From: Synechococcus sp.
GTDB lineage: Bacteria; Cyanobacteriota; Cyanobacteriia; Thermostichales; PCC-7336
Reading direction: 5' to 3'
Assembly: GCA_051439605.1 (NCBI GenBank)
Contig: JBFRWN010000095.1
Span: 1-30,719, forward strand
DNA length: 30,719 nt
Numbering within the stretch: position 1 is the first letter of the stretch; each line of letters starts with the position of its first letter. The position numbers and the translations under genes were made by a program. The notes beneath the pieces were generated by a model that saw only the letters and a list, made by a program, of their open reading frames with translations, did not search any database and was not told the origin of the DNA. Shown here in pieces: positions 1-20,108 of this stretch.

Positions 1-127
1 GGAACGCACAGGGGAACAACAGCAGGCCGGACCAACCTACGAATACGAAGCGGTCCCGCTTGAGCCAGTCGTCCATGATGTCGAACCAGCCGCGGCTCGC
101 TTGGCTGCGACCCATTGCGATGGTCAT
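1..127 (-). CDS. psbD: Photosystem II D2 protein, N-terminal part (runs off the left edge)
   Basis: Manual minus-strand translation from ATG at 127: [42 protein letters not shown], the conserved D2 N-terminus. Not in the ORF track. Confidence 0.97.
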
Positions 128-358
128 AGGATTTCCTCTATAAGCTCAAATCGAACAAAGTGATAAGAATGCAAAAAAGCAAGACTTAAATGTAATTACT
201 ATAGATAGCCGTATTTTTACGAAATATCAAGCGAAGCAACTTTTCCCTAAGCAAGACGGAAAAGTGGCCCCAGGGACTTTAGGTATGAATACCTGCTTGG
301 CTCTCGGGCATGGTTGCGTCCTAGGAAATAAAGATGCTGCGAGGTGATAGGCTTTATG

Positions 359-6327: not shown

Positions 6328-7686
6328 CTACGAGGAGATTGCCGAGCCTGTGGCAATGTATTTCACGGTAGTCAGGTTTTCAAGGCTGATGGGGCCACGG
6401 GCGTGCAGCTTAGACGTGGAAATCCCCAGAAAAGCCCCCAGCAGAGTATTGCGCGGATCGCCCAGGTTAGGCAGACAGTTCACGTATAGGCTACTTGCTG
6501 TTACCGATTGAGAGAACCGTTCGATATCGCTCGCACAATCGGTGATGATGCCCTCCATTTGTCCGTAGCTGTGTTTACACAACCAGGCAATCCCCTCATC
6601 GAGGTTAGATACGATGCGTAAAGGAACTCCCGTCTGCTGCTCTGCAGCAGTGAAATCGCCGCTTACTGCAGCATTGAAATCGCTTGCTTCTGAACGAGAC
6701 TCATTTGCTCTAGCACTGGGAGCGATCCCTGCAGCACCCGTACCGTCATCTTCAAGCGACGCGAGCGCAGGAAGCATTGCCAACACCCGTTCGTCAGGTA
6801 TAACCTGCAGACCAAATTCCTTGAGCTGAACCACCAAAGATTCGAGGTGCTGCTCTGCCCAAGCTTCGTGCATCACAATTCCCATCACCGGAATTTGGAA
6901 TCGCTGGAGCAAATTACCAGTACGGATCACGTGACTATCCTCTGCCAGGACCGTTCCCTGCACTTGTGACCAACTTGCACTGGCAGCAATATAAACATTG
7001 CCACGACCGAATTGCGCGGCAATGGTGGGTACCGTACTTTGCTCCTGCATGCGCTCCACCCAGTTCCAGCGACCACACAGCAACATCAAGTCTATGAAGC
7101 GCTCTTGATGGAGCAAGGACTGTAACCCTTCGGGAGGGTCACTGGGAACGGCCTGAATGGCCCCTTCAGGAATGCCTGCTTCGTAGGCTACAGATGCAAA
7201 TAATTCGGCCATTGCGGCCTGAGTGGCCGCTAAGTTGGGGCTACCCGACAATACAATACCGTTACCAGATTTGAGCGCCATCCCAACCCCCCCAATCTGG
7301 ATCTCGGGATAGACCTCGGTCACCAGCCCTATGACACCTAAAGGAATTCGGCGGCGGACGAGAGAAATGCCGGTGTCGTAATTCCAGTTGCGATCGATAG
7401 CTCCGATCGGATCCGGCAGCTGAGACAGTGCGTTGAGCTGGCTGGCTGCAAACCCAAGTCGTTCGGGGGTGAGTTTCATGCCTTCTAATATCCATTGAGG
7501 CTGCTGCTGACCGCGTACCTGTTCTAGGTCAATGGTATTGGCTTCCAGAATGCTATCTGCTTGCTCTTGTAACGCTTGGGCCATAGCTTCTAAGGCCCGA
7601 TTTTTAACAGTCCCTTGCAGGCGACTAAGGGATGACTGCGCGCGGGCAGTCTGACGGAGGGTGGTACTGAGATCGAAATTATTCAC
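6328..7686 (-). CDS. proA: Gamma-glutamyl phosphate reductase (ProA)-like paralogue with degenerate active site
   Basis: ILEANTIDL, LPDPIG, RIPLGVIG, ALKSGN, LGISTSKLHARGPISLENLTTVKY; no recognisable catalytic CNA motif. Confidence 0.85.
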   Translation of the reverse strand: MNNFDLSTTLRQTARAQSSLSRLQGTVKNRALEAMAQALQEQADSILEANTIDLEQVRGQQQPQWILEGMKLTPERLGFAASQLNALSQLPDPIGAIDRNWNYDTGISLVRRRIPLGVIGLVTEVYPEIQIGGVGMALKSGNGIVLSGSPNLAATQAAMAELFASVAYEAGIPEGAIQAVPSDPPEGLQSLLHQERFIDLMLLCGRWNWVERMQEQSTVPTIAAQFGRGNVYIAASASWSQVQGTVLAEDSHVIRTGNLLQRFQIPVMGIVMHEAWAEQHLESLVVQLKEFGLQVIPDERVLAMLPALASLEDDGTGAAGIAPSARANESRSEASDFNAAVSGDFTAAEQQTGVPLRIVSNLDEGIAWLCKHSYGQMEGIITDCASDIERFSQSVTASSLYVNCLPNLGDPRNTLLGAFLGISTSKLHARGPISLENLTTVKYIATGSAISS

Positions 7687-13068: not shown

Positions 13069-13201
13069 AGCTGTCCAGTTCCTGAAAAAAACCGTTACAA
13101 ATTTACCACGCGATTGTGATGTCCTCTGTCACACCTCTGCTCTGGGGATCGCCAGCAATTTTTGACGATCGACCCTTTTGGTCATACGATTCTAATTACG
13201 G

Positions 13202-13326
13202 CTTTATCCAGAGCAGCTGAGGGACTGGCCCGATGACGCTGCGGCAACCCGATAGATGTCTGCTTTCTAAGAGATGTCTGTTCCGGTGCCAACTCCTGCG
13301 GTTGAACGGAAGACCGACAGATAAAG
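13202..13326 (+). ncRNA. SAM-I (S-box) riboswitch aptamer
   Basis: P1 CTTTATC/GATAAAG; CAGAG; P2 with kink-turn GCAGC-TGAGGGA-CTGGCCC-GATGAC-GCTGC; GGCAACC; GGTGCCAACTCC; directly upstream of metK. Confidence 0.92.
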
Positions 13327-13498
13327 TGCAATTCTTACTTGCCCTTCTGATACCACTCCGTTCAAATACCTGTTGCTGAACTAGTCCTGTGTCTACTTCT
13401 CGACACATCTAGGTACAGCATGACATCTAGGATAGATGTCTGGAGTTCACCTTTGCGGATCGCCTCTGAGAAGCTTTTATTTTCAGGAGATTTCCACA

Positions 13499-14746
13499 GT
13501 GACCAGGCGATATTTGTTTTCATCCGAATCGGTAACCGAAGGACATCCCGACAAGATCTGCGATCAAATTTCGGATACTATTCTCGATGCCCTGTTGACC
13601 GCCGATCCCGCTAGCCGCGTTGCTGCAGAGGTGGTGGTCAATACCGGACTGGTGTTGGTCACTGGAGAAATCTCTACTCAGGCGAACGTTAACTACACCC
13701 AGCTGGTGCGGGAGAAAATTTCAGAGATTGGGTACACCGATTCCAATAACGGCTTTGCTGCCAACAGTTGCTCCGTTCTGATTGCCTTGGACGAGCAGTC
13801 CCCCGATATTGCCCAAGGGGTAGATGTGGCTCTAGAAAATCGTATCGGTGGAGAGGATACCTTCGACTCAATTGGGGCCGGTGACCAAGGGTTGATGTTT
13901 GGGTTTGCCTGCAACGAAACCCCCGAACTGATGCCGTTACCTATCAGCGTTGCCCACCGTCTAACCCGAAAGTTAGCAGAGGTGCGCAAAAACGGCACGC
14001 TGCCTTACTTGGGGCCGGATGGTAAAGCTCAGGTGACGGTGGTATACGAAGACGGCCAGCCGGTTGGAATCGATACCATTTTGATTTCCACCCAGCATAC
14101 AGAAACCATTGACGACCTCACCAAGAATGAAGATGTGCAGGCTCGCATCCGCCAAGATTTGATCGAGTACACCATCACCCCAGCCTTTGCGGAGTTGGCT
14201 ATTCAGCCGAGCGAGTCCACCCGCATTCTGGTGAACCCTACGGGCAAGTTTGTGATTGGCGGACCTCAAGGAGATTCCGGTCTTACCGGACGCAAGATTA
14301 TTGTGGATACCTACGGGGGCTACTCTCGCCACGGAGGGGGAGCTTTCTCCGGGAAAGATCCCACTAAAGTAGACCGCAGCGCCGCCTACGCCAGCCGCTA
14401 TGTGGCTAAAAATATTGTGGCAGCCGGTTTGGCTGACAAGTGCGAAGTACAGGTGAGTTACGCCATTGGAGTGGCGCGGCCGGTCAGTATATTCGTGGAG
14501 ACGTTTGGAACTGGCAAGATCTCGGATGTAGAGCTGCTGCAGCTGGTGTCTGAGCATTTCGATCTACGTCCAGCAGCGATCGCAGCCCACTTTAACTTAC
14601 GCAAACTGCCTCAAGAAAGAGGGGGCCGTTTTTATCAAAACGTTGCCTCCTACGGTCACTTTGGCCAAACTCATCTCGATTTACCTTGGGAGGCAACGGA
14701 CAAAGTTGGGGCGTTAAAGGAAGCGGCGTTAGCTGCAATCGTCTAA
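13499..14746 (+). CDS. metK: S-adenosylmethionine synthetase
   Basis: [31 protein letters not shown] 13499 preceded by AGGAGA. Confidence 0.98.
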
Positions 14747-16025: not shown

Positions 16026-16141
16026 ACGCGTTGGGGAATGGCCCAGCCACCTGTTCTCTATCGATAGCGCCTAAATAGAACGCTCCAAATAGACGTGGCA
16101 AGATGGGGCTGATACTACTGAGTGAGTCTATTCGAAATCTC

Positions 16142-17434
16142 GTGACGAAACTGGGCTATATTTATCGGCCAGCCATCATGCCCCCTAGCAAACGAGATCG
16201 GGATCGGTTGCGGGGGGCCGGGGCAGATGAGGTACTAGTGGACTTGAGCGATCGGCAAGAATATCTCCGTTTAGTTCAGCGGGTGGGGGCAGCGGATCAC
16301 CAAAGCTCTTTGCAGACGCTGCTGCTGTTAACGCTGGCGGATTTGGGGGACACGGTACCGAAGGTGGAGCAGCAGCTCAACTTCTGGCTGCAGCACGAGG
16401 TTACGATCGAGGTGGTGTCCGAGGAGTGTCCGCTGCTCTTGCAGGAACTGGATGCCGTTGCACCTGTATTAACTCGCCTCGCTCAAGACCTCAAAGGCAG
16501 GCACATTGCCGAGGGGCATGCCCACAATCGCCTCAATCGCAAACCGCCCCCCGGCCCAGCTCCCTTTGGTTATCGCCGCGTGCACAACACCTACGTGCTA
16601 GAGGAGCAGCAGGCAACTGTGGTGCGAGCATTTTTCGATCGCTTCCTGCTCTATGGCTCTATTCGCGGATCGGTGAAGTACGTCCAGGAGGAACGGGGGG
16701 AAACCATCTCTGTGACTACTGCACGCCGCTGGCTGACTTCTCCTGTCTATCGCGGAGATCTGCAATTTAAGGATGGAGTCACCCTGCGGGATACCCATCC
16801 GCCGCTGTTGAGCCGCGAGGAAGCGGCCCAAATCGATCGCTGGGCCCGCCGCAATAGCCCCATCTCCAGTCGATCGACCAGTGCCCCTCGTGCTCTGGCC
16901 GGCCTAGTGCACTGTCAAACTTGCGATCGCCCCCTGCGTATCGTGCAGGCGACCCGTAAAAATAGCCAGAGAATCTATCGTTACCTGCGCTGTCCCAGCT
17001 GCAAATACAGCGTCAAATATAATGATGTACTGCAAAATACCATTCAGGCAGTGTGCCAACAACTCCCTGCCAAAGCCGCTAACCTCAATTCCGTTCCGCT
17101 CGACAGTATTAAGAGTCGTATCGAATTACAAATCGAACATAACAAAGGGAAGATATCGGATCTTTCCATTAAGGATTTATCCAACGAAGCAGACTCATCA
17201 GGCAATACCGATCGCCAATATCAGCGCTATCAACTGGAAGGAGAAAATTCCAAGCTCAACCAAAAACGGGATCAACTCCCCCCCGCAGACCTAGCGGCAA
17301 TCGCCCAAACCGTCTCCATCGAACCCTTCTGGCAATCGTTGAGCGAGTCAGAACAGCGATCCTATTTACGGGAATTTATTCGCAAAATCACTGTCAACTC
17401 CCACTGTGAGGTAAAGCTCGAGTTTTTCTTTTGA
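16142..17434 (+). CDS. Large serine recombinase-family protein with degenerate catalytic domain
   Basis: Recombinase domain (GPAPFGY, LTSPVYRG, THPPLLS), Zn ribbon (ALAGLVHCQTC...YLRCPSC), coiled coil, C-terminal LREFIRKITV; no YxRxS or DRLxR. GTG 16142 likely start. Confidence 0.85.
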   Translation: MTKLGYIYRPAIMPPSKRDRDRLRGAGADEVLVDLSDRQEYLRLVQRVGAADHQSSLQTLLLLTLADLGDTVPKVEQQLNFWLQHEVTIEVVSEECPLLLQELDAVAPVLTRLAQDLKGRHIAEGHAHNRLNRKPPPGPAPFGYRRVHNTYVLEEQQATVVRAFFDRFLLYGSIRGSVKYVQEERGETISVTTARRWLTSPVYRGDLQFKDGVTLRDTHPPLLSREEAAQIDRWARRNSPISSRSTSAPRALAGLVHCQTCDRPLRIVQATRKNSQRIYRYLRCPSCKYSVKYNDVLQNTIQAVCQQLPAKAANLNSVPLDSIKSRIELQIEHNKGKISDLSIKDLSNEADSSGNTDRQYQRYQLEGENSKLNQKRDQLPPADLAAIAQTVSIEPFWQSLSESEQRSYLREFIRKITVNSHCEVKLEFFF

Positions 17435-17537
17435 ACTCTATTTCCATTTGTGAACTGCAATATTGACTTTCTTTGTCAGGTTTAACCCTCTACGATTCGA
17501 AATGCGATCGCCTTTGTGGTGATTCATGCGAGGGAAC

Positions 17538-17655
17538 TTGCCGCGCCTAGCCCGCTCTTCGCCTCCTCTAGTCCGAATATCTTTCAGGCGAAGAGTTCAT
17601 CCTCTCTGACTAGAGGATCGATGGGATGAACGGGAAGTAGACAGGGCGATCGCAA
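17538..17655 (+). ncRNA. Putative structured cis-RNA (three-way junction with kissing loops) in the chlL leader
   Basis: Complementary segments 17551-54/17631-34, 17555-64/17586-95, 17596-603/17623-30 and loop-loop 17565-73/17608-16. Confidence 0.5.
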
Positions 17656-17682
17656 CTATAAACTTCTGCGGGAGATGAAGCT

Positions 17683-18522
17683 GTGAAATTAGCGGTATAC
17701 GGCAAGGGTGGCATTGGAAAGTCCACCACCAGCTGCAACATTTCAGCCGCACTGGCAAAGCGAGGCAAAAAGGTCTTACAAATTGGCTGCGATCCCAAAC
17801 ATGACAGTACCTTCACCCTGACGGGATTCTTAATTCCCACCATCATCGACACTCTCGAAGAGAAGGATTACCACTACGAGGATGTTTGGGCGGAAGACGT
17901 CATCTACGAAGGCTATGGCGGCGTCCACTGCGTAGAAGCGGGTGGTCCTCCTGCGGGGGCTGGTTGTGGTGGCTACGTCGTTGGGGAAACCGTCAAGCTG
18001 CTCAAAGAACTGAATGCTTTTGATGAATATGACGTCATCCTGTTTGATGTGCTCGGAGACGTGGTTTGCGGGGGGTTTGCGGCCCCACTCAACTACGCAG
18101 ATTACTGCATGATTGTCACGGATAACGGGTTTGATGCACTGTTTGCAGCCAACCGAATTGCCGCTTCCGTGCGAGAAAAAGCCCGCACCCACTCCCTACG
18201 CCTGGCCGGTTTGATTGGCAACCGCACCTCCAAACGGGACTTAATCGACACTTACATTGCCGAAGTGCCCATGCCGGTGTTGGAAGTGTTGCCCTTGATC
18301 GAAGACATTCGCGTGTCCCGCGTGAAGGGTAAAACCATTTTCGAGCTGGCCGAGAGCGATCCCAGCTTGGAAGCGGTGTGTCAGTTCTACCTCAACATTG
18401 CCGATCACCTGCTGGCCCAACCGGAGGGGATCGTCCCCACAGAAGCTGCCGATCGCGATCTGTTCACCCTCCTCTCCGATTCCTACAACACCGTCCCCAC
18501 TGGAGCCCCCGCTTTGGTATAG
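17683..18522 (+). CDS. chlL: Light-independent protochlorophyllide reductase Fe-S ATP-binding subunit
   Basis: [50 protein letters not shown]. Confidence 0.98.
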
Positions 18523-18680
18523 CTCTGTTTCCTGGTAATGACCGAAGGGGGGAAGCAAAAGGCGATAGTCAAGTTGTTGGGGCCAGCTCGGCTCCAGAAA
18601 CCTGACTGGGAATCTTTCTATCTGTCCGAACTGAGAGGGCAAGAGCTATACCCCTCTCCTCTTTTCCTCCAAAGAGATAA

Positions 18681-20108
<1,428 letters not shown>

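Follow-up and report, generated by a model that had tools for sequence, protein, structure and literature searches.

The spacer upstream of chlL in this Synechococcus genome contains a predicted Y-shaped three-way RNA junction whose two hairpin loops match over 10 nt. At a probability of about one half, we favour the explanation that a young, lineage-specific structure fills a hairpin-prone leader domain here and that it would influence mRNA stability or processing in a generic way at most. The original prediction had taken it for a cis-regulatory element controlling chlL. As a conserved element, that proposal fails: the junction and its loop-loop contact (the 'kiss') were found neither in the three other species of the genus nor in 37 other relatives. 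Because the closest relatives lack the Y-shape, it looks young and local rather than like a conserved genetic switch. A conserved switch controlling DPOR is no longer possible; a generic stabilising or processing structure is.

Genomic setting

The window, that is, the whole 30,719-nt stretch of contig JBFRWN010000095.1 that we analysed, carries on its plus strand a recombinase-family gene (16103–17434), chlL (17683–18522; NifH/frxC family, PF00142, E = 9e-110, with a GTG start at 17683) and chlN (18705–20108; PF00148, E = 2e-48). The element lies in the 248-nt spacer 5' of chlL; both neighbours are on the plus strand, and no minus-strand gene was found near it. Two other features of the window deserve mention. 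A 56-codon open reading frame at 18538–18708 (plus strand) occupies the chlL–chlN spacer; the Synechocystis chlLN unit, as described in part of a published study (PMC4195498), has a small hypothetical gene, ssr1251, between chlL and chlN. A SAM-I (S-box) riboswitch, RF00162, lies at 13201–13327 (plus strand), scores 78.8 bits where the gathering score is 44.4, directly 5' of the S-adenosylmethionine synthetase gene at 13436–14746, and is a member of a known family.

The recombinase-family gene is single-copy in the genome, on the same strand as chlL and syntenic with it across the order (19 of 29 relatives' loci). Homologues of its product at about 40% identity occur in many cyanobacteria, with approximately five further genus-level homologues (P0002–P0005 and P0007) at 64–68% identity; the homologues start about 13 codons downstream of the listed start of this reading frame. 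Against XisF the protein scores 109 bits, far under the cutoff of 375, and Pfam finds no resolvase domain in it. Serine recombinases carry an R-x-S catalytic motif at the N-terminus; in its place, all ten aligned sequences have an N-terminal Y-x-Y-[RTSC]-[PD]-[ASP]. To judge from these sequences, the protein may be a domesticated, catalytically inactive recombinase.

A predicted three-way junction with matching loops

The three helices of the original prediction and its competing hairpin can all be read in the sequence. P1 is a 4-bp helix (CCCG at 17551–17554 with CGGG at 17631–17634, plus strand) with predicted pair probabilities of 0.72–0.93. P2 (17555–17595, plus strand) is a hairpin of 10 perfect base pairs with a 21-nt loop (CTCTTCGCCT at 17555–17564 with AGGCGAAGAG at 17586–17595; 0.86–0.95), and P3 (17596–17630, plus strand) is a hairpin of 8 bp, one of them a U-G, with a 19-nt loop (TTCATCCT at 17596–17603 with GGGATGAA at 17623–17630; 0.55–0.91). 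Over the nested ensemble of the 118 nt, P1–P3 thus span pair probabilities of 0.55–0.95, against 0.04 for the competing local hairpin inside P3 (17599–17605 with 17612–17618). The junction was also said to contain no unpaired bases, and 17554/17555, 17595/17596 and 17630/17631 do all abut; with zero unpaired junction nucleotides, there is therefore neither a ligand pocket nor a catalytic core.

The loops were proposed to match over 9 nt (CCTCTAGTC at 17565–17573 with GACTAGAGG at 17608–17616). They do, and the match extends to 10 bp (TCCTCTAGTC at 17564–17573 with GACTAGAGGA at 17608–17617, both on the plus strand) or to 13 nt of complementarity if one mismatch is allowed; its 5' arm directly abuts the 5' arm of P2. 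The duplex energy comes to −13.8 or −15.7 kcal/mol, the former being that of the isolated duplex. The junction fold is predicted at −39.0 kcal/mol, and a fold that forces 17564–17573 and 17608–17617 into an ordinary stem at −37.5 kcal/mol, a gap of only 1.5 kcal/mol, so that, besides making a tertiary contact, the loop arms could pair as an alternative helix. With linkers of no more than 0 and 4 nt, a full 9-bp contact would probably be strained while P3 is intact, as judged from a simple estimate of distances.

Two details bear on which strand would be read. The U-G pair had been said to favour the plus strand, and U17603–G17623 pairs on the chlL strand only. Among metagenome contigs from four runs, the sole variant listed inside the element is 17551 C>T, carried by X2 and X3, which cover the element (X4 does not reach it and X6 covers it from 17574 on); this change turns the outer P1 pair into a U-G on the plus strand and an A-C mismatch on the minus strand. 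The element is otherwise unchanged in contigs of three runs from two studies, but little can be read into this agreement, since the contigs come from near-identical strains that show 1 difference in 291 nt. As a single observation in such strains, 17551 C>T is compatible with RNA pairing on the plus strand.

Rarity and stability

A scan of the genome (4.9 Mb, both strands) for a perfect hairpin of at least 9 bp next to a hairpin of at least 7 bp, with complementary loops, yielded 2012 perfect hairpins of at least 9 bp and 252 adjacent-hairpin combinations. Only this locus has a 9-nt loop-loop match, and the next best matches are of 8 and 7 nt; these runner-up pairs lie on contigs C88 (about 25–129, minus strand) and C47 (about 7020–7114), respectively. 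Perfect hairpins of at least 10 bp are common in themselves, with 462 in the genome, or about three per window of this size.

The predicted nested stability is unremarkable by comparison. The minimum free energy of the 118 nt has a z-score of −0.72, with 48 of 200 shuffles folding as well, and that of the 84-nt core a z-score of −1.78 (9 of 200 as good). The minus strand folds better, at −46.9 kcal/mol (z = −2.86; 0 of 200 shuffles as good). The evidence that the element is more than chance is mixed, with its rarity speaking for it and its nested stability against it.

Conservation in relatives

Our comparison set comprised the three other species of the genus (by GTDB) and 37 further relatives, 40 genomes in all. 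Relatives are labelled as a 'Synechococcus sp.' MAG, 'Cyanobacteria bacterium J06642_12', Synechococcus sp. PCC 7336 and Thermostichus. Two of the three same-genus genomes (loci L003 and L005) have the flanks of the spacer in common with this one. The centre, from about 17545 to 17630, is not alignable with either of them in either orientation: local alignment scores were 20 and 14 forward and 14 and 13 in reverse, against a shuffle 95th percentile of 17–18. Between GCGAGGGA and GGGCGATCGC the three species have 108, 95 and 72 nt, and the sole word of the centre in common to them is ATCGATGGGA; L003 and L005 have the first 24 nt of the centre in common with each other. The 5' arm of the loop-loop match falls mostly in a 9-column alignment gap of both relatives, and the 3' arm within about 18 nt missing between TTCATC and GATGGGA in L003, the closest relative. 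Under a filter of at least 6 bp with at most one G-U, the stems here measure 12, 11, 10, 9 and 7 bp, and none exceeds 6 bp in the two relatives.

The third same-genus genome (G002, locus L004) has an unrelated chlL leader. It contains, about 150–190 nt 5' of chlL, the perfect palindrome CCCCTCTCCC TA GGGAGAGGGG with a run rich in G after it.

A covariance model of the junction, built on the single sequence with 22 pairs, matched in 0 of the 40 relatives' genomes at E ≤ 1 on both strands, and its best E value across 29 chlL loci searched without filters was 1.2. Given the absent stems and the lack of model matches among the 40 genomes, there is no structural conservation in relatives, the very outcome that the original prediction had named as refuting it. 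A scan of the genome collection returned the same two frame-sharing relatives only, and metagenome scans with a 22-nt conserved word and with a gapped pattern of three conserved blocks returned no further relatives.

A conserved frame around a variable centre

What surrounds the centre is conserved. The frame consists of the blocks 17425–17475, ATTCGAAnTGCGATCGCC, GGTGATT and GCGAGGGA on the 5' side and GGGCGATCGC on the 3' side. It also includes two extended copies of the HIP1 palindrome GCGATCGC, of which the genome has 4221 copies, one per 1160 bp. The 5' copy (TGCGATCGCCTT, 17502–17513, plus strand) is kept in the two leader-sharing relatives; the 3' copy is AGGGCGATCGCA (17643–17654, plus strand). 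In all three species, predicted pairing between the two arms closes a domain of about 150 nt that is more stable than shuffles, with z-scores of −2.46, −3.11 and −2.31 (5, 1 and 4 of 200 shuffles as good). Such a stem is cheap, given the 57 HIP1-type arm pairs 100–200 nt apart in this genome, and may therefore account for most of the domain z-score.

Both the outer stem and an inner basal stem are kept by RNAalifold, with 33 pairs, two of which have double changes, although three sequences offer almost no covariation power. By our reading of the stem listing, L005 has G-C as the twelfth outer pair where this species has U-A. The conservation of the domain is weak evidence, as pairing between HIP1 arms follows from their construction.

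Promoter, leader and ribosome-binding site

On the chlL strand, the element is flanked by the Shine–Dalgarno (SD) sequence on its 3' side and by a conserved block that resembles a promoter on its 5' side. The latter block (17425–17475, plus strand; about 50 nt) spans the stop of the upstream gene, is near-invariant in the three species, with two varying columns, and is more conserved as DNA than chlL itself; it is a candidate chlL promoter or operator. It carries a −10-like CAATAT followed by TGACT, and TGTGAACTGCAATATTGACT within it resembles TGCAGATAATACTGACT, the −10 region before chlL in the sister genus, and is close to TGTGGAGTGCAGATAATACTGACT of that genus. The putative −10 is proposed from this likeness to the sister genus; no consensus promoter was found in 17300–17760 on either strand. 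Because the block resembles the sister-genus −10 region, we infer from sequence a transcription start near 17470, which would give a leader of about 210 nt containing the element. A [CGT]ATAAT box, often in the form CATAATGCTGACTA, occurs 37–246 nt before the start in 22 of 30 chlL upstream regions (7.8 in shuffles), counts that are not independent because the genomes are kin; the box is missing at all four loci of this genus. Since no terminator-like site was found in 17300–17760 on either strand, read-through from the upstream gene is possible. P2 is followed by UUCAUCC and P1 by AAGUAG, neither of which is the U-tract of a terminator or attenuator. Just 3' of the element, at 17657–17662, is a TATAAA that reads TATAGA and TATAGC in the relatives and is not conserved.

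The chlL SD (GGAG, 17671–17674) is predicted to sit in its own local hairpin (17663–17674, plus strand), pairing with CUUC at 17663–17666 with a probability of about 0.77, and this hairpin may modestly modulate translation. A UCC...GGA is present at the same position in the two sister species. The predicted accessibility of the SD is nearly the same after in silico deletion of 17551–17634, and in the predicted ensemble no pairing between element and SD occurs, as an SD-sequestering switch or an RNA thermometer would need. On these predictions the independence of the SD makes the element a self-contained module and not an expression platform. Two candidates were rejected. An anti-SD role for the P3 5' arm (UUCAUC against GAUGAA at 17674–17679) was not seen in the predicted ensemble, and an upstream open reading frame at 17526–17609 (27 codons) lacks its ATG in both relatives.

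Comparison with known families

The original prediction did not recognise the sequence as a purine riboswitch or an SRP Alu domain, and the searches agree: no Rfam match was found in 17300–17800 on either strand at E ≤ 10, cmscan of that region giving only a chance miRNA match elsewhere, and at the gathering score the whole window contains the SAM riboswitch only. Nor is it a dispersed repeat or MITE, an identity that would have refuted the original prediction. The element is single-copy, and in a blastn-short search with word size 7 only its HIP1 tail recurs elsewhere in the genome.

The purine riboswitch (RF00167) and natural hammerhead ribozymes also have three helices with adjacent hairpins and complementary loops. 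Unlike them, the element has no unpaired junction bases, no pocket and no catalytic core; in riboswitch three-way junctions, conserved unpaired junction nucleotides form the ligand pocket. Its loops of 19–21 nt with a 9–10-bp Watson–Crick match also differ from those of the purine riboswitch, which are short and form a few tertiary pairs, and unlike these families it is not conserved outside one species and has no Rfam match. The element can also be compared with stabilising or processing stem-loops of bacterial 5' leaders, such as the 5' hairpin of ompA in E. coli. As in leaders of that type, the predicted structure is compact and stable, lies in an apparently long leader 5' of the ribosome-binding site and is independent of it, and its sequence is free to vary while a stable fold is kept. 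Known protective hairpins, however, lie at the very 5' end, whereas the domain here would begin about 30 nt into the proposed leader.

Two extended HIP1 copies make up the outer closing stem, but the junction between them is unique and unrelated to HIP1. Cyanobacteria also carry miniature inverted-repeat elements and small palindromic repeats, such as Nezha. Like these, the element is short, rich in hairpins and intergenic, and resembles an insertion; unlike them it has a single copy in its own genome, and no copies were found in the 40 relatives. A single event of replication template switching is enough to produce a perfect stem (Monttinen and Loytynoja 2022, PMC8794818). As in such hairpins, close and perfect reverse-complement arms lie here in lineage-specific extra bases, and the relatives' stems are imperfect. 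The published cases covered in the part of that study on which we draw (PMC8794818) are RNA genes, whereas here the site is a putative mRNA leader and two events would be needed. An intrastrand-triplex repeat was rejected, as both pyrimidine tracts would probably run antiparallel to the purine tract.

Discussion

We propose that a conserved frame, made of a promoter-like block, short conserved blocks and paired HIP1 palindromes, holds a filling that differs in each species, and that the centre would be the hypervariable middle of this hairpin-prone domain in the 248-nt spacer. The extra bases bearing both arms of the loop-loop match would have been gained here through insertions or replication template switching, which can give perfect reverse-complement copies in one step. 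Two template-switch events would be needed because the 3' arms stand permuted relative to the contiguous 5' tract. Template switching is a presumed origin, as three diverged sequences give no ancestral state. If the element is co-transcribed with chlL, as its position suggests, the Y-shaped three-way junction would be its dominant nested RNA structure, and the 10-nt loop match could give rise to a tertiary contact that is only partial, or to a long alternative stem 1.5 kcal/mol less stable. The most likely effect of such a compact, stable domain in the 5' leader would be slower attack by ribonucleases, or a site for processing, on the chlLN mRNA; the domain would sense no ligand and gate no ribosome-binding site. 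Selection for the exact fold, which would favour a switch, is an equally good reading of 31 bp that include a single wobble although the region can otherwise drift freely.

An unlikely but serious alternative is that the repeats are neutral DNA, by-products of mutation in an unconstrained spacer, with the chlL start lying downstream or the element transcribed but irrelevant. The centre evolves as if unconstrained, the perfect arms suggest recency, and the L004 leader with its different perfect palindrome suggests that the spacer readily takes hairpin-forming insertions. About 250,000 windows were scanned, and we estimate that among so many, chance alone would yield a one-per-genome oddity many times over. 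TATAAA just after the element would suit a downstream start, but this box is not conserved. Moreover, the frame around the centre is conserved and its domain stable in three species, and, as P1 closes the junction exactly, the joint chance is probably well below one per genome.

A dedicated cis-regulatory RNA of chlLN, in which the kiss-locked junction alternates with another fold in response to a signal, seems doubtful to us. The alternative fold would be either the hairpin at 17599–17605/17612–17618 or the long stem between the loop arms, and the signal, for example, temperature, a protein or a small molecule. In favour of such a switch are the combination itself, which no other in the genome equals, the 1.5 kcal/mol between the folds, which makes the RNA potentially bistable, and both non-Watson–Crick pairs (U17603–G17623 and the U-G created by 17551 C>T), which work on the chlL strand only. 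The constancy of the element, save for 17551, in contigs of three runs from two studies also fits, but those contigs are near-identical. The switch has no counterpart in the 3 same-genus or 37 other relatives, no unpaired pocket bases in the junction and no Rfam match. Its nested energy is unremarkable (z = −0.72), the SD has its own local hairpin and an accessibility independent of the element, and a full kiss with linkers of 0 and 4 nt looks strained. A more specific idea, which we consider a long shot, is that of a newborn riboregulator: template switching would have built a bistable junction and pseudoknot in an older chlL leader hairpin domain, tuning the oxygen-sensitive dark protochlorophyllide reductase in one species. 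If true, it would offer a rare view of how a structured cis-regulatory RNA originates de novo.

Function at the DNA level is very improbable, whether as a HIP1-bracketed invertible segment flipped by the adjacent recombinase-family protein or as an operator, either for that protein or for a regulator of chlL such as PedR. The gene immediately upstream, with its synteny in 19 of 29 relatives' loci, and the 12-bp inverted arms bracketing about 130 bp would suit inversion. However, colinear blocks adjoin both arms on their inner side in three species, the centres show no reverse alignment, and no strand-changing joints were found in contigs of four runs, although contigs drop rare variants. The protein has no R-x-S (10 of 10 aligned) and no Pfam resolvase domain, and, unlike the protein, the inverted repeats of the centre lack conservation. 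For PedR, the motif given in the part of a review that describes it, RWWTRGGYNNYY (PMC13421787), has no match in 17435–17682, and its 9 matches in the whole window compare with 8.3 expected. Just as improbable is a functional minus strand, that is, an antisense or divergent small RNA folded as one long hairpin: this strand does fold better (−46.9 kcal/mol, z = −2.86, 0 of 200 shuffles), but no promoter- or terminator-like sites were found on either strand, no minus-strand gene is nearby, 17551 C>T would give an A-C mismatch, and a search of both strands in the relatives found no conservation.

We return to the preferred reading, a young filling of a hairpin-prone leader domain, and to what it means for chlL. 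Control of chlL and DPOR by the transcription factors PedR and CyAbrB1 is described in part of a review (PMC13421787), and phosphate stress induces the chlLN unit according to part of an earlier study (PMC4195498). Among the papers listed on cyanobacterial chlL UTRs and transcription starts we found no description of a chlL leader structure, and none of those listed on chlL riboswitches names either term in its title or abstract. The main value of our result is cautionary, as a textbook-looking junction with a perfect loop match, unique in its genome, nevertheless fails the conservation test. Should the structure act on the chlLN mRNA, DPOR control, which the parts of the literature considered here describe as transcriptional, would gain a post-transcriptional layer, and the case would show fast turnover of leader structure between sister species.
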